DNA of 64,000 nt from Clostridiales bacterium. GTDB lineage: Bacteria > Bacillota > Clostridia > Christensenellales > Aristaeellaceae. The stretch is taken from positions 11,729 to 75,728 of the forward strand of contig SVHA01000006.1 in NCBI GenBank assembly GCA_015056085.1, read 5' to 3'. Below, piece after piece: positions 850-29,004 of this stretch (positions are counted from its first letter, which is position 1; each line of letters starts with the position of its first letter). Under the pieces are notes generated by a model, which saw only the letters and a list, made by a program, of their open reading frames with translations, had not been told where the DNA came from and made no database searches. The position numbers and the translations under genes were made by a program.

Positions 850-1347
850 GTGCTGGGTCTGAGCGCATTGGCTGATGCGGATGAAGTCCGTGCGGCCTAC
901 CGCAACCTGGTCAAAACCTGTCACCCCGATAAATTCCTGGACGCGGATGAACGCAAAGCCGCCCAGGAAAAGATGATCGCTCTCAACCGGGCCTACGAGG
1001 AAGCGCTGCGCCTGGCGTCCCATCGCCGGGGCACGAATTACAACGCCGGCCTGTGCCTGGTGGACGCCTTGTCCATGGCGGACAAGATGCTCCGCCAGCA
1101 GCACCCTCAAAGTGCCATGCATCACCTGATGCGCACCTCCGAGCGGGACGCCGCCTGGTATGCAAAACAGGGTGAAGTGTACATGGCGATGCAGCAGTAT
1201 GAATCGGCGCACAACGCCTTCCGAGAAGCCATCCGCCGCAATCCCAACAACAATGATTATCGTCAGGGCGCGCTGGACGCCGCCCTCGCCATGAAAAAAG
1301 AGGCGACCTTCTCCGGCCGCCTCAGGAAAATGTTCCACAAAAAGTGA
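850..1347 (+). CDS. J-domain (DnaJ-like) protein with TPR-like C-terminal half
   Basis: AVLGLSALADADEVRAAYRNLVKTCHPDKF is J-domain helix I-II with the HPD motif. AWYAKQGEVYMAMQQYESAHNAFREAIRRNPNN is TPR-like. First canonical start is GTG 850, but J-like residues NPFA continue in frame upstream, so the start is uncertain. Confidence 0.7.
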   Translation: MLGLSALADADEVRAAYRNLVKTCHPDKFLDADERKAAQEKMIALNRAYEEALRLASHRRGTNYNAGLCLVDALSMADKMLRQQHPQSAMHHLMRTSERDAAWYAKQGEVYMAMQQYESAHNAFREAIRRNPNNNDYRQGALDAALAMKKEATFSGRLRKMFHKK

Positions 1348-1500
1348 CCAGGGGGTGCAACCTCCTGGACTCCTTGGTGAGGGCTTTGCCCCCAGCAGGG
1401 GCTCCGCCCCTGCACCCCGTTCGGGGGCGCTGCCCCCGACACCCCCGCAAGGGCCATTGGCCCTTGACCCATTACCCCAAGCCCAAGGGCTTGGGGGATT
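1348..1500 (+). repeat. Module A: tandem GC triloop-hairpin array starting 1 nt after the stop codon
   Basis: Hairpins include gcaggggc-tcc-gcccctgc, tcgggggc-gct-gcccccga and the constant gcaagggcc-att-ggcccttg, each followed by ACCCC. Same module at 2391, 7108, 12644, 25747 and 26897. Confidence 0.9.
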
Positions 1501-1510
1501 GTTCATATGT
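1475..1510 (+). terminator. Terminator-like hairpin closing module A (ccccaagccc / gggcttgggg)
   Basis: 10-bp GC stem followed by attgttcatatg. The same stem at other loci is followed by a clearer T-run. Confidence 0.5.
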
Positions 1511-1542
1511 GGGATTTTCCTTACATGATGTTTTGTTATGCG

Positions 1543-1675
1543 AGGTAGGGTTTCGCCCTCACGGGCGACCAAAGGGCTTTCCGATCGGTCCGCCTCCGCT
1601 TCGCTCCGGAAACTCGCCTTCGGCGACTGCCCACTGGGCAGTTCGTTTCCTTTGGAAACCTTCGGATGCAAGTAG
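1543..1675 (+). repeat. Module B1-long
   Basis: A gtgagg/cctcac-type hairpin, then ccaaagg...cctttgg closing a ~70-nt insert that contains cgcc-ttc-ggcg and ctgccc-act-gggcag hairpins. Colinear with the reverse complement of 12480-12600. Confidence 0.85.
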
Positions 1676-1687
1676 TTTTAGCATTGC

Positions 1688-2008
1688 ACAAACAAAAGCC
1701 CCCTCCGGAAGGGGGCACCGCCGTCAGGCGGTGGGGGAGCCTGCGGTGCAGCGGGTATGATTTCTTGCAAGGGGTAGCGCTTGTTGGATGTTCTTTCTCA
1801 AGCCTGAGAAAGAACCAAAGAGGGCCAGAGGGGGTGTCTCAATTCATCCCACCCGGAGACACCCCCTCTGGACTCCCCCCCTTTCCCCCGGTCTTGTGAG
1901 GGTTATTGAGTTGACTGACCCACAAACGCCTCGCGGGGGCGGCCCGCTTCGGGAGCGCTCCGATGGAGTCCGTGTGCGGCGACGGAGCGCCGCACGCCGG
2001 AACTGTCG
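1688..2008 (+). repeat. Module D: ~320-nt conserved structured core
   Basis: Shared with 6385-6832, 12112-12458 (reverse complement) and 26288-26637. Contains ccccctcc-gga-agggggc, caccgcc-gtca-ggcggtg, gttctttctca..tgagaaagaac, a 16-bp stem at 1825-1871 and gtgcggcg-acggag-cgccgcac. Confidence 0.9.
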
Positions 2009-2054
2009 TACCGGGGCGGGGATGAGGCGTGTTTCGGTTCCTTGCCGGAACAGG

Positions 2055-2115
2055 CAATCCCTCAGTCAAAAATCAGAGATTTTTGTCAGCTCCCTTTACA
2101 CAAGGGTGCCTTTTT
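2055..2115 (+). repeat. Fragment homologous to the 3' flank of the DUF559 gene cassette
   Basis: caatccctcagtca...cagctccctttacacaagggtgcc matches 55833-55882 (caatccctcagtca...cagctccctttacacaagggagcc). The internal hairpin has a different stem sequence. Confidence 0.7.
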
Positions 2116-2157
2116 GAGCCACTGCTAAATTGTTCTTTACGGCAAGGCTTTTCTTGC

Positions 2158-2222
2158 AAGGTGAGGTTTCGCCCTCACGAGCGACCAAAGGGCTTTCCGA
2201 TCGCCCTTTGGAAACCTTCGGG
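2158..2222 (+). repeat. Module B1-short
   Basis: gtgagg-tttcgc-cctcac, then ccaaaggg-ctttccgatcg-ccctttgg (2185-2211), then gaaaccttcgg. Confidence 0.85.
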
Positions 2223-2307
2223 TACCCTCGGATGAAAGGGGTATTAGTCTGATGGTTGAAGAAACGGTTTCCTTTCCTCCGGTTAGGTCAACTCCAAACG
2301 GTGCGAG

Positions 2308-2344
2308 CCGAAGGGGTCCAGGGGGCGATCGGAAAGCCCCCTGG
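2308..2344 (-). repeat. Module B2-short (GGG/CCC stem variant)
   Basis: The plus strand reads ccgaaggggtccagggggcgatcggaaagccccctgg, which is the reverse complement of the B2 form at 6877-6913. Confidence 0.8.
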
Positions 2345-2383
2345 TTGCCCCGGCAAAGACAAGAGAGATGTACAAATGCCCTC

Positions 2384-2418
2384 AACAAAAAATCCCCCAA
2401 GCCCGTCAGGGCTTGGGG
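2384..2418 (-). terminator. Terminator-like hairpin closing module A downstream of hom
   Basis: The minus strand reads ccccaagccc-tgac-gggcttgggg followed by gattttttgttg. Confidence 0.6.
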
Positions 2419-2544
2419 TGATGGGTCAAGGGCCAATGGCCCTTGCGGGGTCCAGGGGCAGCGCCCCTGGTGGGTTTCCAAAGGGCAAAGCCCTTTGGTG
2501 CGGGGCAAAGCCCCGCAAAAGGAGTCCAGGGGCGAAGCCCCTGG
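2391..2544 (-). repeat. Module A abutting the hom stop codon (2545)
   Basis: In the sense of hom: ccaggggc-ttc-gcccctgg, gcggggc-ttt-gccccgc, ccaaagggc-ttt-gccctttgg, ccaggggc-gct-gcccctgg, the constant gcaagggcc-att-ggcccttg, then the terminator-like hairpin. Confidence 0.9.
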
Positions 2545-3822
2545 TCACCCTTCGGTGCGAATAACGCTCTGTACCTGGCAGACGGCTTTCGGCATGGCGG
2601 CGAGCGCCGCCTGCACGGACATTTCCGGGGCGGAATGGGTAATCAGCACAAGGGTCAGGCGGCCATCCACCGGGGCGTCCCGCTGCACCATGGTGGCAAT
2701 GGACACATTCTCCCGGGCAAGGCAGCCGGCGATTTTTTCCAGCGTGCCGGGGGCGTCCACGGCACTCATGCGCACAAAGAAGCGGGTGTTCCAGTTGCGG
2801 GTGAACTGCAGGGACACATCCGGCTCGGCGAGGAAGGCAGAATCCGGGAAGAAATGCTCCGTCGCATTGCCAGCCCGCATGATGTCTCCCACAATAGCGC
2901 TGGCGGTGGGCAGATCGCCCGCACCGCGGCCCTGCAGCATCATTTCCTTGCAGGCGTGACCGCTGAGGTATACGGCGTTGAAGGAATCATGCACCCGGGA
3001 CAGGGGATGTTCCTTGGGCAGGAAAGTGGGATGCACCCGCACTTCCACCGTGTCGCCCTCCCGCTTGGCCACGGCCAGCAGTTTCATCACATAGCCCAGT
3101 TCCTTGCCCCAGGCGATATCCTCCTGGGTCACGCCGGTGATGCCTTCACGATACACCTGCTTGAAGGGCACGCGGGTATGGAATGCCAGGGACGCCATGA
3201 TCGACAGCTTGTAGGCGGCGTCCATGCCCTCCACGTCGCTGGAGGGATCCGGCTCGGCCAGGCCCAGTTTCTGGGCGTCTGCCAGCACGGCGGCGTAATC
3301 CTCACCCTGCTCGTACATCCGGGAGAGAATATAGTTCGTAGTGCCGTTGATGATGCCCATGATGCTGCTGATGCGGTTGCTCTGCATGGGGCCGGACAGC
3401 ACGTCGATCACCGGGATGGCGCCGCATACGCTGGCCTCATAATACAGTCCTGCACGGCCATGGCGGGCGGCCTCGTGGAGGCGGTGCCAGTTCAGCGCCA
3501 ACGCCATCTTGTTGGCGGTGACGACGGTCTTGCCGCTCTTGAGCGCCCGGAGCATATATTCCGTGGCGGGCTGTTCGCCGCCCATGAATTCCGCCACCAG
3601 GGTGATTTCCGGGTCGCAGAGCACATCTTCAGGGCAGGTGGTCAGAAGGGATTGGGGCACAGAGCAGGTGCGTGCCTTGTTCACATTGCGCACCAGCACC
3701 TTCTTCACCCGGATTTTCAGGTTCGCCCGCTGGGCCAATTCCTTCTCAAAGCCTTCCAGCAGTTTCCACACGCCGCCGCCCACATTGCCGCAGCCCAGAA
3801 AGCCGATCACCAGTTCCTTCAT
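2545..3822 (-). CDS. hom: Homoserine dehydrogenase
   Basis: 425 aa. N-terminal NAD-binding GFLGCGNVGGGV, a central homoserine dehydrogenase core and a C-terminal ACT-like region. Confidence 0.9.
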   Translation of the reverse strand: MKELVIGFLGCGNVGGGVWKLLEGFEKELAQRANLKIRVKKVLVRNVNKARTCSVPQSLLTTCPEDVLCDPEITLVAEFMGGEQPATEYMLRALKSGKTVVTANKMALALNWHRLHEAARHGRAGLYYEASVCGAIPVIDVLSGPMQSNRISSIMGIINGTTNYILSRMYEQGEDYAAVLADAQKLGLAEPDPSSDVEGMDAAYKLSIMASLAFHTRVPFKQVYREGITGVTQEDIAWGKELGYVMKLLAVAKREGDTVEVRVHPTFLPKEHPLSRVHDSFNAVYLSGHACKEMMLQGRGAGDLPTASAIVGDIMRAGNATEHFFPDSAFLAEPDVSLQFTRNWNTRFFVRMSAVDAPGTLEKIAGCLARENVSIATMVQRDAPVDGRLTLVLITHSAPEMSVQAALAAMPKAVCQVQSVIRTEG

Positions 3823-6328: not shown

Positions 6329-6384
6329 GGGGACACCTCCTGTCCTGTGGTTTCATGGTATGCGGGGGCGTTGCGGGTGTGTTC

Positions 6385-6832
6385 CTTGCAAGGGATAGCG
6401 CTTGTTGGGTGTTCTTTCTTGGGTCTGAGAAAACCCTTGCGGCATTTCGGTAATGATTAGCGTTCTTTCTCAAGCCTGGGAAAACCCTTGCGGCATTTCG
6501 GTAATGATAAGCGTTCTTTTTCGAGCCTGAGAAACCATTGCGGCATTTCGGTAATGATTAGTGTTCTTTCTCAAGCCTGAGAAAACTTTTGCGGCATTTC
6601 GGTAATGATTAGTGTTCTTTCTCAGGCCTGAGAAAGAACCAAAGAGGGCCAGAGGGGGTGTCTCAATTCATCCCACCCGGAGACACCCCCTCTGGACTCC
6701 CCCCTTTCCCCCTGTCTTGTGTTGGTTATTGAGTTGACTGCCCCACAAGCGCCTCGCAGGGGCGGCCCGTTTCAGGGTCGCTCCGATGGAGTCCGTGTGC
6801 GGCGACGGAGCGCCGCACGCCGGAACTGTTGT
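6385..6832 (+). repeat. Module D copy (contains the 51-bp tandem expansion)
   Basis: Runs from cttgcaagggatagcgcttgttgg to cgccgcacgccggaactgtt. The invariant 47-nt hairpin is at 6649-6695. Confidence 0.9.
6411..6640 (+). repeat. Tandem repeat, ~51-bp unit, 4 full copies plus the ancestral partial copy
   Basis: Units start at 6411, 6462, 6513, 6563 and 6614 (gttctttctcaagcctgagaaaacccttgcggcatttcggtaatgattagc). The whole unit repeats with no unique spacers. Confidence 0.9.
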
Positions 6833-6876
6833 GGAGTGTCTTGGTTGATACCTGTTTCACGACCTTGCCGTCACAA

Positions 6877-6913
6877 CCAGGGGGCTTTCCGATCGCCCCC
6901 TGGACCCCTTCGG
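6877..6913 (+). repeat. Module B2-short
   Basis: ccaggggg-ctttccgatcg-ccccctgg followed by accccttcgg. Confidence 0.85.
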
Positions 6914-7003
6914 CTTGACCCCTACCGGCAATCTTGAGCAAGCAACAAAAGAAAAACCGTTCCTCCAACAAGCAGGTTACAACCCTAAACAAGAGATGGG
7001 ACT

Positions 7004-7064
7004 CCGAAGGTTTCCAAAGGGCGATCGGAAAGCCCTTTGGTCGCCCGTGAGGGCGAAACCTCAC
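7004..7064 (-). repeat. Module B1-short
   Basis: The plus strand reads ccgaaggtttccaaagggcgatcggaaagccctttggtcgcccgtgagggcgaaacctcac. Confidence 0.85.
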
Positions 7065-7101
7065 TTTGCATAAAAGCATAGCCTGAAAGGAAAATCCATC
7101 T

Positions 7102-7133
7102 ACAAAAAATCCCCCAAGCCCTTGGGCTTGGGG
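7102..7133 (-). terminator. Terminator-like hairpin closing module A downstream of aconitase
   Basis: The minus strand reads ccccaagccc-aa-gggcttgggg followed by gattttttgtag. Confidence 0.6.
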
Positions 7134-7240
7134 TAATGGGTCAAGGGCCAATGGCCCTTGCGGGAGTCCAGAGGGCAGAGCCCTCTGGTGGGGCGTGGGG
7201 CAAAGCCCCACATAAGGGGGGCGTGGGGCGAAGCCCCTGG
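7108..7240 (-). repeat. Module A abutting the aconitase stop codon (7241)
   Basis: In gene sense there are three variable hairpins (for example gtggggc-ttt-gccccac and ccagagggc-tct-gccctctgg), then the constant hairpin and the terminator-like hairpin. Confidence 0.9.
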
Positions 7241-9169
7241 TCAAAGCCCTTCCCGGGTATAGTTCAGCAGTCCGCCGCAGAGGATGCAGCCCCGCTGGCG
7301 GTCGGTGAGGGGCATCAGGACGGTGTAATCCTCCTGGCGGGTGAGGTTGCGCAGGATGAACGCTTCGCTGCCGCATTCCACCAGCGGGCGCAGGGCGGGC
7401 AGAATCAGTTCATCACCGGGGGCGATGCGGTCGTAATCCGCCTCATCGGCAAAGGTCAGGGGCAGAATGCCGTTGTTGATGAGATTCGCCTGATGAATCC
7501 GGGCGAAACTCTTGGCGACCACCGCCCGCACGCCCAGATACAGCGGCACCAGGGCGGCGTGTTCCCGGCTGGAGCCCTGACCATAATTGGCGCCGGCCAC
7601 CAGAATGCCGCCGCCGGCTGCCTTCGCCCGGGCAGGGAAGGTGGCGTCCACCGGTGTGAGACAGAAATCGGCAAGGTAGGGCACGTTTGAGCGGAAGGGC
7701 AGGAGCTTGGCGTCGGAGGGCGCAATGTGGTCGGTGGTGATGTTGTCCTCCATTTTCAGCAGCACCTGGCCGGAAACATCATCCGGAAGCGTCCTGCCCA
7801 TGGGGAAGGGCTTGATGTTGGGGCCCCGCACCACATCCACCGTATTTTCCTGACCGGCGGCGACAGGGGGAATCACCAGATTGTCGTTGATTTCAAAGGT
7901 TTCCGGCTGGGGGATGTCCAGATCGATGTTCAGGCTGCGGGGATCCGTCAGCACGCCGGTGAGGGCGGTGATGGCGGCGGTTTCGCAGGAAACCAGATAG
8001 ATGCCGGCGCTGCGGGTGCCGCTGCGGCCGTAGAAATTGCGGTTGTTGGTGCGCACGGACACGGCGCCGGACTTGGGCGACTGCCCCATGCCGATGCAGG
8101 GTCCGCAGGCGGATTCCAGAATGCGGGCGCCGGCGCCCAGCATATCCGCCAGGGCACCGTTGCGGGCCAGCATGGTCAGCACCTGCTTGGAGCCGGGGCC
8201 AATCACCAGACTCACATCCGGGTGAACGGTCTTGCCCTTCAAAATCCGGGCGACACGCATCATGTCCGTGTAGGAGGAATTGGTGCAGGAGCCGATGAAC
8301 ACCTGATCTACCTTGATGGGCCCGCATTCTTCCACGGTGACCACCTCATCAGGCATATGCGGGCGGGCCACCAGCGGCACGAGGGCGGAAAGATCAATGT
8401 GGATGACTTCGTCGTAGACGGCGTCTGCATCGGCGCACAGGGGGGTGAAATCCCTCTCCCGCTGCTGGGCACGGAGGAAATCCCGGGTGATTTCATCCGC
8501 CGGGAAAATGGAAGTGGTGGCGCCCAGCTCGGCGCCCATATTGGCGATGGTGGCTCTTTCGGGCACGGACAGGGTCTTGACGCCCTCGCCGATGTATTCC
8601 ATCACCTTGCCCATGCCGCCCTTCACCGTCAGGCGGCGCAGCACTTCCAGAATGACGTCCTTGGCGGCCACGCCGTAGGGCAGGCGGCCGGTCAGCTCCA
8701 CACCCACCACCTTGGGGCAGGAGAGGTAATACGCTCCGCCGCCCATGGCCACGGCCACGTCCAGTCCGCCGGCGCCGATGGCCAGCATACCCAGACCGCC
8801 GCAGGTGGGCGTGTGGCTGTCAGAGCCCAGCAGGGTCATGCCGGGCACGCCGAAGCGCTCCAGATGCACCTGATGGCAGATGCCGTTGCCGGGCTTGGAG
8901 CAATAGATGCCATGCTTTTTCGCCACCGACTGAATAAACTGATGGTCGTCGGCGTTTTCAAAGCCGGTTTGCAGGGTGTTGTGGTCAATGTATGCTACGG
9001 ATTTCTTCGTCCGCACCCGGTCAATGCCCATGGCTTCAAACTGCAGATAAGCCATGGTGCCGGTGGAATCCTGGGTGAGGGTCTGATCAATGCGGATGGA
9101 AATCTCCGTGCCGGGCGTCAATTCGCCGGACAGAAGATGGTCGGACAGGATTTTCTGTGTCAGGTTCAT
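7241..9169 (-). CDS. Aconitate hydratase (short ~640-aa clostridial/Aquifex-type aconitase)
   Basis: Fe-S ligand motifs GSDSHTPTCGG, IGSCTNSS and CGPCIGMG. Start chosen at ATG 9169 (MNLTQKIL), with AAGGAG 7 nt upstream, rather than ORF-track 9217. Confidence 0.9.
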   Translation of the reverse strand: MNLTQKILSDHLLSGELTPGTEISIRIDQTLTQDSTGTMAYLQFEAMGIDRVRTKKSVAYIDHNTLQTGFENADDHQFIQSVAKKHGIYCSKPGNGICHQVHLERFGVPGMTLLGSDSHTPTCGGLGMLAIGAGGLDVAVAMGGGAYYLSCPKVVGVELTGRLPYGVAAKDVILEVLRRLTVKGGMGKVMEYIGEGVKTLSVPERATIANMGAELGATTSIFPADEITRDFLRAQQRERDFTPLCADADAVYDEVIHIDLSALVPLVARPHMPDEVVTVEECGPIKVDQVFIGSCTNSSYTDMMRVARILKGKTVHPDVSLVIGPGSKQVLTMLARNGALADMLGAGARILESACGPCIGMGQSPKSGAVSVRTNNRNFYGRSGTRSAGIYLVSCETAAITALTGVLTDPRSLNIDLDIPQPETFEINDNLVIPPVAAGQENTVDVVRGPNIKPFPMGRTLPDDVSGQVLLKMEDNITTDHIAPSDAKLLPFRSNVPYLADFCLTPVDATFPARAKAAGGGILVAGANYGQGSSREHAALVPLYLGVRAVVAKSFARIHQANLINNGILPLTFADEADYDRIAPGDELILPALRPLVECGSEAFILRNLTRQEDYTVLMPLTDRQRGCILCGGLLNYTREGL

Positions 9170-10821: not shown

Positions 10822-10937
10822 GCAGGGGGAGCCCCTGCCGGGATGCGGGGCAACGCACCCCTTGCCCGCTGACTGAGGGAGCCTGCAGTGACGGGAAATC
10901 TGTACAGCGGATTCTATCAGCAAATCGGAAAAAACGC

Positions 10938-11496: not shown

Positions 11497-11916
11497 ATGG
11501 CATACAACGTAATCAATGAGATTGTCAAAGTATTCGACGCAGAAAACGTGAACTATCAGACCTATGATGAGGGCGGAATCTCCTGCGTGGCAGCCATTTG
11601 CGAGGGCAAGAACGCCCGTGAAATTGTTGTCCACTTTACGGTCACCAATGACGAAGAAGCCGTTTATGTCCTGAGCCTCGGCTTTGCAACCGTGCCGGAC
11701 GATAAGGTGCCTTCCGTGCTGGCGACCCTCTCCAAGTTGAACAATCAATACCGCTATGTTCGCTTCATTCTCGATGACAGCAACGACGTCGCTGTGAACT
11801 ATGATATTCCCCTGAGCACGGCCGATGTGGGCGAAGTGGCCTGCGAGTTGCTGTATCGCATGGCGCAGACAATTGATGCGGCGTATCCCGAACTGATGGA
11901 GGCCATCGAGGGCTGA
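11497..11916 (+). CDS. YbjN-like protein, paralog 2
   Basis: YRYVRFILDDSNDVAVNYDIPL...VGEVACELL. AGGAGG lies 9 nt before ATG 11497. An in-frame ATG at 11491 is only 3 nt from the RBS. Confidence 0.55.
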   Translation: MAYNVINEIVKVFDAENVNYQTYDEGGISCVAAICEGKNAREIVVHFTVTNDEEAVYVLSLGFATVPDDKVPSVLATLSKLNNQYRYVRFILDDSNDVAVNYDIPLSTADVGEVACELLYRMAQTIDAAYPELMEAIEG

Positions 11917-11997
11917 AACAAGAAAAGCCCTCTGGTTGTTGAGGACAAAATCGCCAAACAGGTATCGGATTACATACGGTACAGACTTTTTCCAATG

Positions 11998-12080
11998 CCC
12001 GCAGGCTCCCCACCGCCTTGCGCTGGAGCCCCCTCCTGGAGGGGGCTTTTGTTTGTGCCATGCTAAGACTACTTGCATCC
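11998..12080 (-). repeat. Duplicated fragment of module D (direct repeat of 12404-12482)
   Basis: gcaggctccccaccgcc..ggagccccctcc.ggagggggcttttgtttgtgccatgctaagactacttgcatcc occurs twice about 405 bp apart. Confidence 0.85.
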
Positions 12081-12111
12081 TTGTTAGTTGACTTAGCCCC
12101 GGTAAAAAATT

Positions 12112-12458
12112 GAAGCACGCTTCGTACCCGCTCCTCTACAACAGTTCCGGCGTGCGGCGCTCCGTCGCCGCACACGGACTCCATCGGAGCGCCCCCGAAA
12201 CGGGCCGCCCCCGCGAGGCGTTTGAGGGTAACTCAACTCAATAACCCTCACAAGACCGGGGGAAAGGGGGGAGTCCAGAGGGGGTGTCTCCGGGTGGGAT
12301 GAATTGAGACACCCCCTCTGGCCCTCTTTGGTTCTTTCTCAGGCCTGAGAAAGAACACCCAACAAACAATATCCCTTGCAAGAGGTCATACCCGCTGCAG
12401 CGCAGGCTCCCCACCGCCTGACGGCGGAGCCCCCTCCAGGAGGGGGCTTTTGTTTGTG
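12112..12458 (-). repeat. Module D copy (reverse orientation)
   Basis: The invariant 47-nt hairpin is at 12275-12321. The perfect palindrome gttctttctcaggcctgagaaagaac follows it. Confidence 0.9.
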
Positions 12459-12479
12459 CCATGCTAAGACTACTTGCAT

Positions 12480-12600
12480 CCGAAGGTTTCCAAAGGAAAC
12501 GAACTGCCCAGTGGGCAGTCGCCGAAGGCGAGTTTCCGGAGCGAAGCGGAGGCGGACCGATCGGAAAGCCCTTTGGTCGCCCGTGAGGGCGAAACCTCAC
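12480..12600 (-). repeat. Module B1-long
   Basis: The plus strand reads ccgaaggtttccaaaggaaacgaactgcccagtgggcag...ggaccgatcggaaagccctttggtcgcccgtgagggcgaaacctcac. Confidence 0.85.
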
Positions 12601-12629
12601 CTTGCATAAAAACATAGCCTGAAAGAAAA

Positions 12630-12671
12630 AACCACACATAAACAATCCCCCAAGCCCGTCAGGGCTTGGGG
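12630..12671 (-). terminator. Terminator-like hairpin closing module A downstream of the AI-2E gene
   Basis: The minus strand reads ccccaagccc-tgac-gggcttgggg followed by gattgtttatgtgtg. Confidence 0.5.
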
Positions 12672-12762
12672 TGATGGGTCAAGGGTCGAAGACCCTTGCG
12701 GGGGTGTCGGGGGCAGGGCCCCCGACCGGAGTGCAGAGGCAGAGCCTCTGCCAACGCCCCTC
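12644..12762 (-). repeat. Module A abutting the AI-2E transporter stop codon (12763)
   Basis: In gene sense: gcagaggc-tct-gcctctgc and tcgggggc-cct-gcccccga. The constant hairpin here reads caagggtc-ttc-gacccttg, a compensated C:G to T:A change. Confidence 0.9.
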
Positions 12763-13791
12763 CTACCCTCTCCAGCCATGAATGGCGCCCCGGACGGACA
12801 CCAGCAGGGGAATGGCCCCCACCATCCCCGGAATACCGGCGGCCATGCCGCCAGCCATCACCGCCAGCAGCACCACAATGGGGTGCAGATGCGTGGCGCC
12901 GGAAAGCAGCCGGGGCGAAAGCAGCAGGCTTTCCACCTGCTGCACGGCCACCAGCGCCGCCAGCGTCCACAGGGCGGGAGACAGCCCTGCCTGCAGCGCC
13001 AGCAGCACCGCAGGCACACCCACCAGCACCGGGCCCACATAGGGCACCAGTTCCATCACGCCCATCATCAGCCCCAAAAGCAGCCAGCCCGGCGTGCCGC
13101 ACAGCGCCAGCGCCCCGGCGGTCATCACCCCCACGGACAGGCTCAGCAGCAGCTGCCCCCGCACATACCCGGCGCTTTCCCGGCGCATTTCCCGGGCGGC
13201 CCGCACTGCCTGCATCCGATAGCGTACCGGCACTGCCATCAGCATCAGCGCGCTGATCTTCCGCCGGTCCCGAAGGAGATAATAGGACACAAGGGGCGCC
13301 AGAAGCACCTTGGTGGCGCCGCTGGCCATGCGGCGGATGGTCTCGGCGGCGGCGGACACCAGTTGGCCCAGATATCCGCTGACGGCGGAGAACGCCTTGC
13401 CCCTTAGATCGCTCAGGTCAAGGCCCCGCTCCGTCAGCCAGTGGGTGACGTCCGTCGCTCTTGCCTGTACCCAGGCGATCATCTCCGGCATGGCGCTGCT
13501 GATCTGCTCCGCCTGGCGCATCAGCGGGGGAATCACCCCCAGCAGCACCGTGAGCAGGATCAGCGCCAGCAAAAGCAAGGCGCCCAGCGCAGATATTTTG
13601 GGCGAAAACCGCTTTTCCAGCCATCGGGAGATGGGCAGGCAGGCCAGAAAAATCACCAGCGCCGCCGCCATCAGCCGGCACAGCGCCAGCACGATGTTCC
13701 ACGAAAAAATCAGCCCTGCGGCAAGGGCTGCAAATGCAATCAGCCGCCTGCGGCGCAGTGGCCAGGGACGAACCTCTCCCCCATGCGTCAC
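12763..13791 (-). CDS. AI-2E family transporter (PerM/YdiK-like permease)
   Basis: 342-aa polytopic protein with the family-typical LVPYVGPVLVGVPAVLLAL segment. GTG start has AAGGAGGG 6 nt upstream. Confidence 0.85.
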   Translation of the reverse strand: MTHGGEVRPWPLRRRRLIAFAALAAGLIFSWNIVLALCRLMAAALVIFLACLPISRWLEKRFSPKISALGALLLLALILLTVLLGVIPPLMRQAEQISSAMPEMIAWVQARATDVTHWLTERGLDLSDLRGKAFSAVSGYLGQLVSAAAETIRRMASGATKVLLAPLVSYYLLRDRRKISALMLMAVPVRYRMQAVRAAREMRRESAGYVRGQLLLSLSVGVMTAGALALCGTPGWLLLGLMMGVMELVPYVGPVLVGVPAVLLALQAGLSPALWTLAALVAVQQVESLLLSPRLLSGATHLHPIVVLLAVMAGGMAAGIPGMVGAIPLLVSVRGAIHGWRG

Positions 13792-25429: not shown

Positions 25430-25687
25430 ATGTCTGAAGAACGCACTGAGCGTCGGCCCCGCCCCCGCGGAGGCCGTCGTCCCCGCCGGAAGGTTTGCTC
25501 CTTCTGCGTGGATAAGATCGAGTACATCGATTACAAGGATATCAACCGTCTGCGTCGCTACATGAACGAGCGCGGCAAGATCCTGCCCCGTCGTATGAGC
25601 GGCAACTGCGCCAAGCATCAGCGTCAGCTGAGTGAAGCCATCAAGCGCGCCCGTGCCATCGCGCTGCTGCCCTTCACCGTTGATTGA
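25430..25687 (+). CDS. rpsR: 30S ribosomal protein S18
   Basis: [43 protein letters not shown]. Confidence 0.95.
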
Positions 25688-25715: not shown

Positions 25716-25746
25716 CCCCTCCGGAGCAATCCGGAGGGGTTTTTTG
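25716..25746 (+). terminator. Intrinsic terminator of the rpsF operon
   Basis: cccctccgga-gcaa-tccggagggg followed by tttttt. Confidence 0.9.
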
Positions 25747-25925
25747 TGGGGCTTTGCCCCTGCACCCTTTTGCGGGGCTTTGCCCCGCACCCCACCAGGG
25801 GCTCTGCCCCTGGACCCCGGTTGGGGGCCCTGCCCCCGACACCCCTTTCTGCGGGGCTTTGCCCCGCACCCCAGCAGGGGCTCTGCCCCTGCACCCCGCA
25901 AGGGCCATTGGCCCTTGACCCATCA
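25747..25925 (+). repeat. Module A, longest array (7 tandem hairpins)
   Basis: tggggc-ttt-gcccct, gcggggc-ttt-gccccgc, caggggc-tct-gcccctg, tgggggc-cct-gccccc, gcggggc-ttt-gccccgc, gcaggggc-tct-gcccctgc and gcaagggcc-att-ggcccttg. Each is followed by (C)ACCCC. Confidence 0.9.
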
Positions 25926-25964
25926 CCCGGAAATCCTGACGGATTTCCGGGGTGTTCTTTTTTT
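25926..25964 (+). terminator. Variant terminator hairpin closing module A
   Basis: cccggaaatcc-tgac-ggatttccggg followed by gtgttcttttttt. It has the same tgac loop as the ccccaagccc hairpins but a different stem. Confidence 0.65.
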
Positions 25965-26004
25965 GAGGTAGTTTTGGACATTTGGCTTGTTTTCACCGGG
26001 GCAA

Positions 26005-26102
26005 CCAGGGGGCTTTCCGATCGGTCCGCCTCCGCTTCGCTTCGGAAACTCGCCTTCGGCGACTGCCCACTGGGCAGTTCGTTTCCCCTGGACCCCTTCG
26101 GT
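26005..26102 (+). repeat. Module B2-long
   Basis: ccagggg...cccctgg closes the same ~70-nt insert as B1-long, followed by accccttcgg. Confidence 0.85.
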
Positions 26103-26186
26103 CTGCATCCTTGTAAGTAGACTTTGCCGGAACAAAAAAACCGTTTCTCCTACAAACATACTAATACCCCTTCATCCGGAGGGAGC

Positions 26187-26247
26187 CCGAAGGTTTCCAA
26201 AGGGCGATCGGAAAGCCCTTTGGTCGCCCGTGAGGGCGAAACCCCAC
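26187..26247 (-). repeat. Module B1-short
   Basis: The plus strand reads ccgaaggtttccaaagggcgatcggaaagccctttggtcgcccgtgagggcgaaaccccac. Confidence 0.85.
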
Positions 26248-26287
26248 CTCGCACAAAGACTTGTTTTGGAGAAAAATCGTGCGACGG

Positions 26288-26637
26288 CACAAACAAAAGC
26301 CCCCTCCGGGAGGGGGCTCCGCCGTCAGGCGGTGGGGGAGCCTGCGCTGCTGCGGGTATGACCTCTTGCAAGGGATAGCGCTTGATAGGCGTTCTTTCTC
26401 AGGCCTGAGAAAGAACCAAAGAGGGCCAGAGGGGGTGTCTCAATTCATCCCACCCGGAGACACCCCCTCTGGACTCCCCCCTTTCCCCCTGTCTTGTGAG
26501 AGTTATTGGGTTGACTGCCCCACAAACGCCTCGCGGGGGCGGCCCGTTTCGGGGTCGCTCCGATGGAGTCCGTGTGCGGCGACGGAGCGCCGCACGCCGG
26601 AACTGTTGTAGAGGAGCGGGTACGAAGCGTGCTTCGG
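26288..26637 (+). repeat. Module D copy
   Basis: The invariant 47-nt hairpin is at 26426-26472. The 3' extension ggaactgttgtagaggagcgggtacgaagcgtgcttc is shared with L3. Confidence 0.9.
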
Positions 26638-26727
26638 TTTGTTGCAGGAGCGAAGTCAACTTTCAAGAGATGGGACTCCGATGATAGTTGACCGAGCAAT
26701 AAACAAAGGCTAATCCCCCATACAAAC

Positions 26728-26772
26728 AATCCCCCAAGCCCTTCAAGGCTTGGGGTGATGGGTTAAGGGCCA
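26728..26772 (-). repeat. Truncated module A (terminator-like hairpin plus half of the constant hairpin)
   Basis: aatcccccaagcccttcaaggcttggggtgatgggttaagggcc, then an abrupt junction to taagactacttgcatcc. Confidence 0.8.
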
Positions 26773-26789
26773 AATAAGACTACTTGCAT

Positions 26790-26851
26790 CCGAAGGTTTC
26801 CAAAGGGCGATCGGAAAGCCCTTTGGTCGCCCGTGAGGGCGAAACCCTCAC
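26790..26851 (-). repeat. Module B1-short
   Basis: Same sequence as 7004-7064 and 26187-26247. Confidence 0.85.
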
Positions 26852-26885
26852 CTCGCACAAAAGCACAGTATGAAAGGAAAAGCCT

Positions 26886-26921
26886 ACATACAAAACATCC
26901 CCCAAGCCCTTGGGCTTGGGG
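26886..26921 (-). terminator. Terminator-like hairpin closing module A downstream of the zinc-ribbon/TPR gene
   Basis: The minus strand reads ccccaagccc-aa-gggcttgggg followed by gatgttttgtatg. Confidence 0.5.
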
Positions 26922-27054
26922 TGATAGGTCAAGGGCCAATGGCCCTTGCGGGGTGTAGGGGCAGCGCCCCCGACTGGGGTGCGGGGCAAAGCCCCGCAAA
27001 AGGGTCCAGGGGGCATAGCCCCCTGGTGGGTTCCCCAAGGGCAAAGCCCTTGGG
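26897..27054 (-). repeat. Module A abutting stop codon 27055
   Basis: In gene sense: cccaagggc-ttt-gcccttggg, ccagggggc-tat-gccccctgg and gcggggc-ttt-gccccgc, then one imperfect unit, the constant hairpin and the terminator-like hairpin. Confidence 0.9.
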
Positions 27055-29004
27055 TCAGTGCAGATACGTCCACAAAATCGCCGTACAGGCGCCGGAGGTG
27101 TTCAGGATGTACTCCAGCTGCCAGCGGTGGCCATCGCCGGTGCTGGCGATGTAGCGGATGATCTTCGTGCCGTCTTCCTGGAGATAAATCTTGCCCTTGT
27201 CGTCGTCATCTTCATACAGGCCGCGGTTGCCAGAAGCGCTGGCGACCTGGCCCATATCCTTGAACTTGCTTACGATGTCGCTTTCCATGGAGCCGATGCC
27301 GGTGCCGCGGGGGCCGCTGAAATAACTGCTGGTGAAGCACAGATCGCCCAGCACCCAGCCGGCGGAATTGTGGATCATGGTGACATAGCCCCAGGGATAG
27401 TAATACCGCATACATTCGTGCTGCAGCAGGGATGAAGTCACTGCCTCACTGCGCTCACCTTCGCCGTGCTGGAGGAAAAATTCCTCCCGGGTGGTGGCGG
27501 TCAGTTTCATGCCGCCGATGGCGTCAGCCATCTCAAAGGGCGCCTCCGGCCAGGGCTCAGCCATGATTTTGTAGGTGATTTCCTTGGTGTTGGAGGGCTT
27601 GCCGTAGCCGTTGACGGAAACCGCCCGGAGGGTGATCTTGCGGGCGGGCAGCTTGATGGGAGTGCCATCAAAAATGGGGCTGTCAGAATCCGGCGCAGAG
27701 CCATCAATGGTGTAGTAAATCACAATGTCCTGAGCCACGGGGTCTGTCAGGGTGGATTTATAGCCGGGATTCTTTTCCAGTTCCTCATCGGTGAGTTTGC
27801 CCGGCGTCAGGCGCACGGTCTGGGACTTCTGATAGGTGTTGGGGGCCAGATTGGCCTGGGGCTGCAGGGGCGTGGGCATGAAAATCTGATAGGTGACCTG
27901 CAGCGGGTCGCTGACGAGGGTCTCGCTGACAGCCACGGCCCGCAGCACGTGCTCGCCTTCTTCGCCAAGAGGGATGGTGCCCGTGTAGAGCGTGCCGCCC
28001 TCGGGCAGAACGGCCTCGGGGTCAAAGGTGTAGTAAATATCGTAGGATTCAGCGCTGGAAAGATTCAGCGACTTTTTCTGATTGTAATAGCCGCCGATGA
28101 GGTCTACGGTGGGGATGGAGGGCAGCAGTTCGCTGCGCTGCTGCAGGAAGGTCTCCTGACCGGTTTTTTCGTAGGCGAGTTTGAGCAGCTCGGCTGCTTC
28201 CGGGTCCCGGCGCTGGCTCAGGAGAATGCGCACCATGCTGCGATAGGCCTCCGGGGCGCTGGGGGCGATCTCCGTGTAGATTTCGGTGTAGAGCGCTTCG
28301 GCTTCTTCCAGGCGGCCGTCGGCTTCATAGGCGCTGCACAGGCTCATCAGGCCGGTGACGTTGATGTTGTCCTTGCCGTCCTTTTCCCGGGCCAGCAGGA
28401 AATACTCCACTGCGCCGTCGATGTCGCCGGTGTCCAGACGTTCTTCGCCCACCTGCCACAGAGCGGCAGCCTCGGCGTCCACGCCCATGCGGGCCAGAAT
28501 CAGCTGACCGCCGGGCGTCTTGTCCAGATACATATACATCCCGAAAGCGCCCAGCAAAAGCAAAATCACCAGCGCAATGGTGACATACGCCCAGTTGACG
28601 CCGCTGAAGCGCTTCTTTTTCGCCCGGCGATGGCGCACCCGCTCGCTGCCGGGCAGAAGGCCTTCGGCGGCCAGGCTGTTGTTGACTTCCCTCAGGGAGC
28701 GGATTTTCTCCGTGCCCATGCGGTCGCCGTTTTCGTCGTAGATTTCCGGGTCGGCGTACAGGGGGATATTGGTGGAGCTGCTGCGGGCAGAGGCGTCCAC
28801 ATAGGTGCGGCTGGCGCCCCTGCGGGGTACAGGCGCCGGAGCGGGGGACACCGGGCGAGCGGGGGTGCTCCTGGAACCGGTGCGACCCTGGCGGATGTTC
28901 TGCACACCGCCGCCGGATCCTTCGTCATGGGTCAGCAGCGTCTGACACTGGGGGCAGAGAATATCCTCTGCCGTGGCGTATGCGCCGCATTTGGGACACA
29001 GCAT
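27055..29004 (-). CDS. Zinc-ribbon / single-TM / TPR protein with two chitobiase-C-like (Ig-like) repeats
   Basis: MLCPKCGAYATAEDILCPQCQ is a zinc ribbon. TM segment VTIALVILLLLGAFGMYMYL. A TPR-like segment is present, plus IYYTFDPEAVLPEGGTLYTGTIPL and IYYTIDGSAPDSDSPIFDGTPIKL. AAGGAGGG lies 7 nt upstream. Confidence 0.75.
   Translation of the reverse strand: MLCPKCGAYATAEDILCPQCQTLLTHDEGSGGGVQNIRQGRTGSRSTPARPVSPAPAPVPRRGASRTYVDASARSSSTNIPLYADPEIYDENGDRMGTEKIRSLREVNNSLAAEGLLPGSERVRHRRAKKKRFSGVNWAYVTIALVILLLLGAFGMYMYLDKTPGGQLILARMGVDAEAAALWQVGEERLDTGDIDGAVEYFLLAREKDGKDNINVTGLMSLCSAYEADGRLEEAEALYTEIYTEIAPSAPEAYRSMVRILLSQRRDPEAAELLKLAYEKTGQETFLQQRSELLPSIPTVDLIGGYYNQKKSLNLSSAESYDIYYTFDPEAVLPEGGTLYTGTIPLGEEGEHVLRAVAVSETLVSDPLQVTYQIFMPTPLQPQANLAPNTYQKSQTVRLTPGKLTDEELEKNPGYKSTLTDPVAQDIVIYYTIDGSAPDSDSPIFDGTPIKLPARKITLRAVSVNGYGKPSNTKEITYKIMAEPWPEAPFEMADAIGGMKLTATTREEFFLQHGEGERSEAVTSSLLQHECMRYYYPWGYVTMIHNSAGWVLGDLCFTSSYFSGPRGTGIGSMESDIVSKFKDMGQVASASGNRGLYEDDDDKGKIYLQEDGTKIIRYIASTGDGHRWQLEYILNTSGACTAILWTYLH

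Follow-up and report, generated by a model that had tools for sequence, protein, structure and literature searches.

What are the tandem hairpins that stand directly behind stop codons in a 64,000-nt stretch of a Clostridiales genome (contig SVHA01000006.1, positions 11,729 to 75,728; hereafter, the window), and what do they do for the genes that they follow? A first-pass annotation, made from the letters of the sequence, took them for structures under selection at the 3′ ends of five particular genes. That claim does not hold as it was stated, for the hairpin arrays are copies of a modular repeat that is interspersed well beyond these genes. The account favored here, to which we assign a probability of roughly 55%, is that they represent an undescribed repeat family of gut Clostridia (Oscillospirales and relatives), similar to repetitive extragenic palindromes (REPs), bacterial interspersed mosaic elements (BIMEs) and BOX elements, which supplies the upstream gene with its 3′ untranslated region (3′ UTR) and terminator. 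The family itself is a real and undescribed repeat, and in this genome it is tied to stop codons with unusual strictness.

A motif scan and hairpin dissection revealed one common build in the six arrays of the window (L1–L6; three-digit L numbers denote loci from other assemblies or contigs) and in two further arrays of the same contig beyond it. Each array consists of two to six hairpin units arranged head to tail, and the eight arrays hold at least 35 units across ~72 kb of the contig, all of them intergenic. A unit comprises a short linker, a GC-rich stem of 7–9 bp, a 3-nt loop (TTT, TCT, GCT, CCT, TTC, TAT or GCA), the complementary stem, and a C-rich 3′ tag that reads ACCCC, ACCCT, ACTCC or a near variant. 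Units within any one array of the window are all direct, with none alternating. They are followed by a constant hairpin, CAAGGGCC-ATT-GGCCCTTG, and then ACCCAT. The closing element is a hairpin of terminator type, CCCCAAGCC(C)-loop-(G)GGCTTGGGG, whose tail is rich in T. Two arrays vary this scheme. L4, at the AI-2E gene, carries the constant hairpin in a compensated form, CAAGGGTC-TTC-GACCCTTG, where CC/GG has become TC/GA (12680–12698), and L5, at rpsR, closes with a hairpin of different stem that keeps the TGAC loop, CCCGGAAATCC-TGAC-GGATTTCCGGG (25926–25951), and is still T-tailed.

The placement of the arrays is as regular as their build. Five of the six in the window begin at the base following the stop codon of a gene (identities are from Pfam), and four of these open with a hairpin right at the stop: those of the J-domain, hom, aconitase and Zn-ribbon/TPR genes. 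For instance, the TGA of the J-domain gene occupies 1345–1347, and the hairpin CCAGGGGGT-GCA-ACCTCCTGG starts at 1348. The hom stop on the minus strand (2545–2547) is met by CCAGGGGC-TTC-GCCCCTGG, which ends at 2544, and that of the Zn-ribbon/TPR gene (27055–27057) by CCCAAGGGC-TTT-GCCCTTGGG, which ends at 27054. The first unit of the aconitase array, ending at 7240 against a stop at 7241–7243, is imperfect and pairs only over its inner 5 bp and outermost pair. The AI-2E gene ends in TAG (12763–12765) and is followed directly by a G-rich head, GAGGGGCGTTG, with the first true hairpin 11 nt past the stop. The sixth array follows the terminator that belongs to rpsR itself: the stop lies at 25685–25687, the terminator at 25716–25739 plus a T run, and the array starts at 25746. 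In all eight arrays of the contig, orientation is that of the gene touched. Rereading of the six places bore out the first-pass annotation as to the positions of arrays and stop codons, their shared orientation (six of six in the window), the direct abutment at five genes (via the 11-nt head at the AI-2E gene), the canonical terminator ahead of the rpsR array, the succession of constant and T-tailed hairpins in every array, and both variant hairpins; its count of three to six units per array had to be amended to the range given above. Coordinates of all features are collected in Table 1.

Table 1. Repeat islands, hairpin arrays, closing hairpins and interior modules, numbered from the first base of the window.
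Feature	Position	Strand	Basis or context
Repeat island 1, between convergent J-domain gene and hom; an array at either end, modules B and C in between	1344..2548	.	self-BLAST
Repeat island 2, downstream of the aconitase gene	6372..7243	.	self-BLAST
Repeat island 3, downstream of the AI-2E gene	11996..12751	.	self-BLAST
Repeat island 4, between convergent rpsR and Zn-ribbon/TPR gene; arrays at both ends	25741..27055	.	self-BLAST
Array L1, 4 units (one degenerate) and constant hairpin CAAGGGCC-ATT-GGCCCTTG	1348..1466	+	from base after J-domain stop
Terminator-like hairpin CCCCAAGCC-CAAG-GGCTTGGGG and T-rich tail, ends L1	1475..1505	+	terminator scan
Array L2, 4 units and constant hairpin	2427..2544	-	from base after hom stop
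Terminator-like hairpin CCCCAAGCCC-TGAC-GGGCTTGGGG and GATTTTTTGT, ends L2	2385..2418	-	terminator scan
Array L3, 3 units (first imperfect) and constant hairpin	7142..7240	-	from base after aconitase stop
Terminator-like hairpin and T-rich tail, ends L3	7102..7133	-	terminator scan
Array L4, G-rich head GAGGGGCGTTG, 2 units, compensated constant hairpin	12680..12762	-	from base after AI-2E stop TAG
Terminator-like hairpin and tail, ends L4	12638..12671	-	terminator scan
Array L5, 6 units and constant hairpin	25746..25917	+	right after T run of rpsR terminator (25716-25745)
Alternative terminator-like hairpin CCCGGAAATCC-TGAC-GGATTTCCGGG and T run, ends L5	25926..25964	+	terminator scan
Array L6, 4 units and constant hairpin	26930..27054	-	from base after Zn-ribbon/TPR stop
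Terminator-like hairpin and tail, ends L6	26890..26921	-	terminator scan
Partial copy in island 4: 3′ half of constant hairpin and terminator hairpin, fused to B-module end	26732..26775	-	
Module B copies	1546-1660, 2148-2345, 6870-7060, 12480-12600, 25995-26240, 26775-26850		
Module C copies	1690-2010, 26286-26610	+	
Module C copy	11996-12440	-	
Module C, part	within 6372-6836		
Lone family-like hairpin GCAGGGG-GAG-CCCCTGC	10822..10838	+	0 nt after TGA stop of ATP_bind_3 (TilS-like) gene

The array pattern exceeds chance. The rpsR array (287 nt) has a folding energy of −169.5 kcal/mol versus −119.3 ± 5.5 for shuffled sequences (z = −9.2 in the sense direction and −6.8 in antisense). Likewise, the arrays form the gene-proximal tips of four repeat-packed intergenic islands, delimited by self-BLAST, that make up 6.5% of the window and contain half of its GC-rich triloop hairpins, a 14-fold enrichment. 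A scan with a consensus terminator model picked out the final hairpin in each of the six arrays, every time in the direction of the upstream gene, with stems of 9–11 bp, 7–8 GC pairs and five or more T in 8; at the five genes that the arrays abut, no other terminator was found between stop and array. Such hairpins have the make-up of intrinsic (Rho-independent) terminators, namely a GC-rich stem-loop and a U tract in the direction of the gene, and are predicted to terminate transcription.

The stems differ from unit to unit and stay complementary, as had been noted at first pass. Among 117 distinct units taken from the window, the contig and related loci, pairing holds at 96% of stem positions versus 71.5% in column shuffles, a percentage that is partly built in because units were chosen for being hairpins, whereas stem diversity is not. 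Pairing falls to 33–53% when the partner is slid by one to three columns, double-sided changes number 199 as opposed to 45 in shuffles, and all four Watson–Crick pair types are found at four stem positions. An excess of G-T over A-C combinations, considered as a possible sign of pairing specific to RNA, amounts to 20 versus 7 overall, where detection allowed wobble pairs, and to only 11 versus 6 at bias-free positions. The complementarity could thus serve a need at the RNA level or one at the DNA level, such as an enzyme's recognition of the hairpin in single-stranded form; it would be kept because the folded form matters for the RNA, for the mechanism of spreading, or for both.

Among orthologous genes, some have an array and others do not. 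For hom, whose stop codon is native given that 117 of the 120 listed Hom homologues are 425 amino acids long, the orthologues carry an array in the window and in L155 and none in L154 and L158. In a relative with an 87% identical Hom, the gene ends in TAA and is followed by a small open reading frame (ORF) and an ordinary terminator; in another, with 72% identity, TAA is followed by an ordinary terminator 14 nt on. A third (73% identity) has TGA-CCG and then three units without a constant hairpin, the third of which, in L155, is the one inverted unit seen. Similarly, rpsR of L030, whose S18 protein is identical, has only an ordinary terminator. Overall, the ordinary terminators of the array-free relatives (L154, L158 and L030) lie 14–200 nt past the stop.

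Variation is also evident between strains. Strains that agree in the J-domain protein also have identical arrays; what sets them apart is the loop sequence of the terminal hairpin and the distal modules, which vary in order and content. Faecalibacterium-like genomes show single sites at which one strain departs from another by an entire unit or by a linker of 7 nt, and unit number would thus change as units are gained or lost. In close relatives, short-read contigs end inside the array. An assembly artefact is unlikely, because arrays occur in independent assemblies. In an assembly from another sample (L161 527–1906, compared with window positions 850–1347 and 11497–12762), the J-domain island runs straight into the AI-2E island on the side of the YbjN gene, which reflects either recombination between islands or chimeric assembly through their common repeats.

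The constant hairpin allowed the family to be traced in other genomes. Exact-pattern scans located it in 28 loci of species-representative genomes and in at least 120 metagenome loci, and it is identical over 23–26 nt across all of these. Of the genome loci, 27 are titled gut Clostridia or unclassified bacterium bins, the exception being an Alloprevotella bin; hosts include Faecalibacterium, Oscillospiraceae, Lachnospiraceae and unclassified bins, with 53–67% GC. In other assemblies, zero to four units of the same design precede the constant hairpin and the downstream modules differ; the junction specific to the window had no match in the metagenome scan. About ten junctions in other species abut stop codons (for example, TGA followed by a AGGGGGAGACG-hairpin, TAG by a GGGAGACC-hairpin, and TGA by a CCA-hairpin) and three come after the T run of a terminator. 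About six abut the ribosome-binding site (RBS) or start region of a divergent gene, one of them 20–30 nt away from the start codon (ATG) of a gene for a translational GTPase, and many are found within mosaic repeats of other kinds. Adjacency to stop codons is thus a strong rule in this genome and a common one elsewhere, and it is not universal: copies in other species also occupy RBS and start regions, the interior of repeats, and a plasmid.

The plasmid in question is a circular rolling-circle replicon of ~4.4 kb encoding a Rep_1 protein (PF01446, HUH), recovered whole with repeating ends (L076), which has a unit plus constant hairpin in its non-coding region. Other small circular contigs with Rep_1 likewise carry one unit and the constant hairpin (L046, L052, L067, L082, L083, L095, L100, L110 and L141). 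These plasmids also encode a tyrosine recombinase, and the hairpins lie downstream of a conserved structured stretch. Two CRISPR arrays hold spacers identical to the plasmid region with the constant hairpin; the spacer corresponds to the variant ACCCCGCAAGGGTCGTTGACCCTTGACCC(T/G)TCA between repeats GTCGCCCTCCTCGCGGAGGGCGTGGATAGAAAT (L090 ~3250–3320 and L146 ~11960–12030, both metagenome contigs). The region matched by the spacers may be the single-strand origin of the plasmid.

Among known plasmids, the matches were all short, covered one GC hairpin or a tandem run, and came from high-GC taxa, so that the design also occurs outside Clostridia. For example, the Streptomyces sp. plasmid NZ_CP108415.1 (L170 596–775) contains six tandem hairpins of the form CCAGGGGC-GCT-GCCCCTGG-ACCCC, two such hairpins fill a 66-nt gap between convergent genes on a plasmid of Pseudoroseomonas cervicalis (Acetobacteraceae; L172 700–757), and single near-identical units occur on plasmids of several high-GC genera. 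Most of the single-unit matches could reflect convergence between GC-rich terminator hairpins. A phage origin was rejected, as 2.9 million viral contigs contained no exact match and the matches in phage collections are fragments of an interior module (module B, described below) only. A known RNA family was ruled out as well: Rfam gave no match in the window at the gathering threshold (weak noise only, with E up to 1), and 15 related loci yielded a single tRNA as their sole match. The hairpin sequences were present in no paper found, and keyword searches of the literature gave no counterpart in Clostridia.

How might such a repeat act at the end of a gene? Since the arrays follow the stop codon in sense orientation with no terminator in between, each would be transcribed as the 3′ UTR of its upstream gene. 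Transcription would then end at the built-in terminator, and the stacked hairpins could present barriers to 3′-to-5′ exonucleases. A ribosome positioned on the stop codon would cover and unfold the first hairpin, with a possible effect on termination or recycling. The family itself would spread and be reshuffled at the DNA level, through a transposase or through recombination between units, as its distribution suggests.

Several points weigh against this account. Co-transcription, termination at the last hairpin, protection from 3′ exonucleases, and the means of spread are all inferred, and the paired percentage of the stems is in part a product of how units were chosen. Neither a target-site duplication nor a clean empty/filled pair at the strain level was recovered, so the case for mobility rests on distribution. 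No mobilizing enzyme was found in the loci searched; in particular, a six-frame scan of the window and ~170 loci for the HUH...YxxxNP motif of RAYT-like ORFs returned false hits only. The abutment of start regions in other species is not predicted if the repeats are 3′-end cassettes. Finally, the likeness to REPs is incomplete in two respects: the tag here is ACCCC, with no GTAG or CGTC at the feet of the stems, and units are direct and head to tail, while those of REP clusters alternate.

The main rival places the function in the DNA. Accordingly, the hairpins would be substrates of an enzyme acting on single-stranded DNA (an HUH/Y1 transposase such as RAYT or the TnpA of IS200/IS605, or another recombinase that recognizes hairpins), ACCCC would be the cleavage or target motif, and the arrays would be by-products with only incidental effects on mRNA. 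We regard this as unlikely overall, while deserving more weight than any other alternative. Each unit does consist of a hairpin with a conserved 3′ tag in one orientation, and the constant hairpin is invariant over its 23–26 nt across genera of differing GC content, as the recognition site of a protein would be. The copy in the non-coding region of the Rep_1 plasmid points the same way, as do the head-to-tail T-B modules described below, which have subterminal hairpins at both ends and recur at a fixed junction. In addition, copies of the Faecalibacterium type have an array head, GGGGAGAC, that fits the GGGGWSAS motif reported in repeats flanking RAYT-like genes (PMC3733652), a further point for this reading. 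On the other hand, no Y1 or RAYT-like ORF lies near any copy searched, there is no GTAG or CGTC tag, and orientation follows the neighboring gene on both strands within 64 kb instead of one replication strand. The sequence ahead of the first unit is not the tag, and the TGA commonly found there is simply the most frequent stop, ending 15 of the 23 genes called on the contig. A role for TGA as insertion target or as part of the element was rejected for the same reason, and because one array follows TAG and another a terminator.

A bolder version of the 3′ UTR account appears improbable. It holds that the arrays are portable 3′-end cassettes that are placed at, or home to, the base after the stop, replace the native terminator, and move between genera of gut Clostridia, possibly on rolling-circle plasmids; the position at the stop would itself be functional, for example by coupling ribosome release to folding.

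Little credence is given to the opposite extreme, that the arrays are purely selfish or neutral DNA with no role in expression, squeezed against a stop codon or RBS by the deletion of non-essential sequence. The patchy presence among relatives would fit, as would the islands that fill entire gaps between convergent genes and the array heads of other species, which abut a stop codon in some cases and the RBS region of a divergent gene in others. Against this stand the co-orientation of array and gene in eight of eight cases on the contig, the terminator-like hairpin that is always distal and co-directional, and the array that remains identical in strains with differing distal modules. Moreover, five genes have no native terminator, so something must terminate them.

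It is very unlikely that the arrays serve as loading sites for Rho, with ACCCC linkers ~25 nt apart each binding one Rho subunit and the hairpins looped out. Base composition is strongly strand-asymmetric (7% G, 36% C and 37% T among unpaired bases of the sense strand), and an array offers three to seven regularly spaced linkers. However, 57–74% of array bases are paired, and every array is already closed by a hairpin and T tail resembling an intrinsic terminator, which makes Rho less necessary. Scarcely credible is a recoding signal, in which a UGA-C stop and the stable hairpin behind it would promote read-through or selenocysteine insertion: TGA does precede seven of the eight contig arrays (the next base is C in four and G in one, at PseudoU_synth; the rpsR TGA lies 59 nt upstream) and the arrays contain a long stretch with no in-frame stop, yet TGA is the commonest stop in this genome, arrays also follow a TAG and a terminator, and the products would have repeat-encoded, low-complexity tails. 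A bacterial selenocysteine insertion sequence (SECIS) or read-through signal needs an in-frame UGA within a continuing conserved ORF, and this is contradicted by the constant length of Hom and by the AI-2E profile, which is complete before the stop; an array-encoded C-terminus for Hom was rejected on the same length evidence.

Comparison with known systems helps to place the family. REPs of E. coli lie close to stop codons and stabilize upstream mRNA. As with REPs and BIMEs, the arrays comprise short GC-rich palindromic units in clusters, occur in many extragenic copies, mostly at gene 3′ ends or between convergent genes, form mosaics with other motifs, show compensatory stem changes, and are patchy among relatives. 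REP palindromes carry a conserved GTAG or CGTC tetranucleotide at one end (PMC3733652). Besides the differences in tag and orientation given above, stems here are perfect, with 7–9 bp and 3-nt loops, and those of REPs longer and imperfect; the host is a member of the Clostridia, the loci searched gave no RAYT, and a conserved closing hairpin and built-in terminator are included.

BOX elements of Streptococcus pneumoniae, also a Firmicute, are intergenic, strongly folded repeats (boxA-boxB(n)-boxC) whose constant ends enclose internal units in varying number. The arrays share this arrangement of variable tandem units between constant end modules; the likeness drawn here is one of architecture only. 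BoxB units are longer (~45 nt), and to our knowledge neither stop-codon abutment nor a built-in terminator has been reported for BOX.

Hairpin-cluster intrinsic terminators, in which several hairpins less than 15 nt apart just past the stop act as one unit (Gupta and Pal 2021, PMC8355165), resemble the arrays in their stop-proximal hairpins and U-tailed last hairpin. In contrast, they are locus-specific and mostly made of two hairpins, whereas an array has four to eight hairpins and is a copy of a genome-wide repeat. The attC sites of integrons are also folded, conserved in structure and variable in sequence, and lie right after a stop in fixed orientation to the gene. An attC site, however, consists of a single long, imperfect hairpin that has extrahelical bases and R″-L″/L′-R′ boxes and is recognized by IntI, and the arrays are many short perfect hairpins beside housekeeping genes (hom, acn and rpsR), with no integrase and no cassettes. 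PATEs, non-autonomous derivatives of IS200/IS605, share the subterminal hairpins, the lack of terminal inverted repeats and the strand-specific orientation, and by analogy insertion next to a short fixed motif is possible. There is, however, no tnpA or tnpB nearby and no defined target tetranucleotide was found, and multi-unit arrays are atypical of PATEs. Unlike miniature inverted-repeat transposable elements (MITEs), the arrays have no terminal inverted repeats at their ends and no duplication at their junctions; whole islands do have inverted arrays at both ends, but these differ in unit content. The family is thus not a strict MITE, an attC site or an Rfam family. By analogy, it would work like REPs, BIMEs and hairpin-cluster terminators (PMC8355165) and is built like BOX, while departing from REPs in tag and in unit orientation.

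Such a family is of interest for several reasons. REP-like systems have been described mainly in Proteobacteria, and here a family in an uncultured gut member of the Clostridia fills ~6.5% of the window and recurs in Faecalibacterium-like, Oscillospiraceae and Lachnospiraceae assemblies. Because the repeat breaks short-read assemblies, it limits the quality of gut metagenome-assembled genomes. The combination of stop-codon abutment, direct-repeat hairpins and a built-in terminator offers a testable natural case of a mobile module that would supply gene 3′ ends, and a compact set of candidate terminator and stabilizer parts for Clostridia. Furthermore, the invariant hairpin provides a handle for finding the protein that would recognize it.

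The remainder of the islands is composed of other modules. In the two window islands between convergent genes, an array stands at each end and points away from its own gene. Module B has a core hairpin, CCAAAGGGC-TTTCCGATC-GCCCTTTGG or CCAGGGGGC...GCCCCCTGG, often occurs as inverted pairs ~230 nt apart, and in some copies has a 64-nt loop insertion (GTCCGCCTCCGCTTCGCTCCGGAAACTCGCCTTCGGCGACTGCCCACTGGGCAGTTCGTTTCC). Fragments of it are also present in unannotated human fecal contigs filed as phage, and beside hom in the relative L158. Module C is a hairpin-rich element of ~400 nt, and three of its copies can be aligned closely along about this length. At its end stands a hairpin of terminator type, GGAGCCCCCTCC-N-GGAGGGGGCTTTTGTTTGT, which lies on the other strand from the adjoining array and faces it. 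The module has no Rfam match; it may represent a gene for a small RNA or a further element of the non-autonomous kind. Island 2 additionally contains a 51-bp tandem repeat (6411–6635; 4.4 copies at 89% identity; GTTCTTTCTCAAGCCTGAGAAAACCCTTGCGGCATTTCGGTAATGATTAGC) that has the hairpin GTTCTTTCTCA-GCCTGAGAAAGAAC in common with module C. The junction ...GGATGCAAGTAGTCTTA|TTTGGCCCTTGACCCATCACCCCAAGCC... joins the end of module B to the 3′ half of the constant hairpin and the terminator hairpin; it recurs at 26775/26776 in the window, at ~4113 in L167 and at ~20750 in L160, and yields head-to-tail "T-B" units of ~190 nt with a subterminal hairpin at each end.

The window is part of a 106-kb JGI metagenome contig, and a fifth island lies within 7.5 kb beyond the window start, flanked by a gene for a pseudouridine synthase and by a GH127-like gene. 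It has an array at each of these convergent gene ends, one of which begins at the base after TGA. In the other, the first hairpin, CAGGGGG-TAA-CCCCCTG (L160 21254–21270; 7.4 kb before the window start), has as its loop the TAA called as stop of the GH127-like gene, and from its sequence the array may reach into the ORF. The coding bases ahead of this TAA resemble the 3′ half of another unit.

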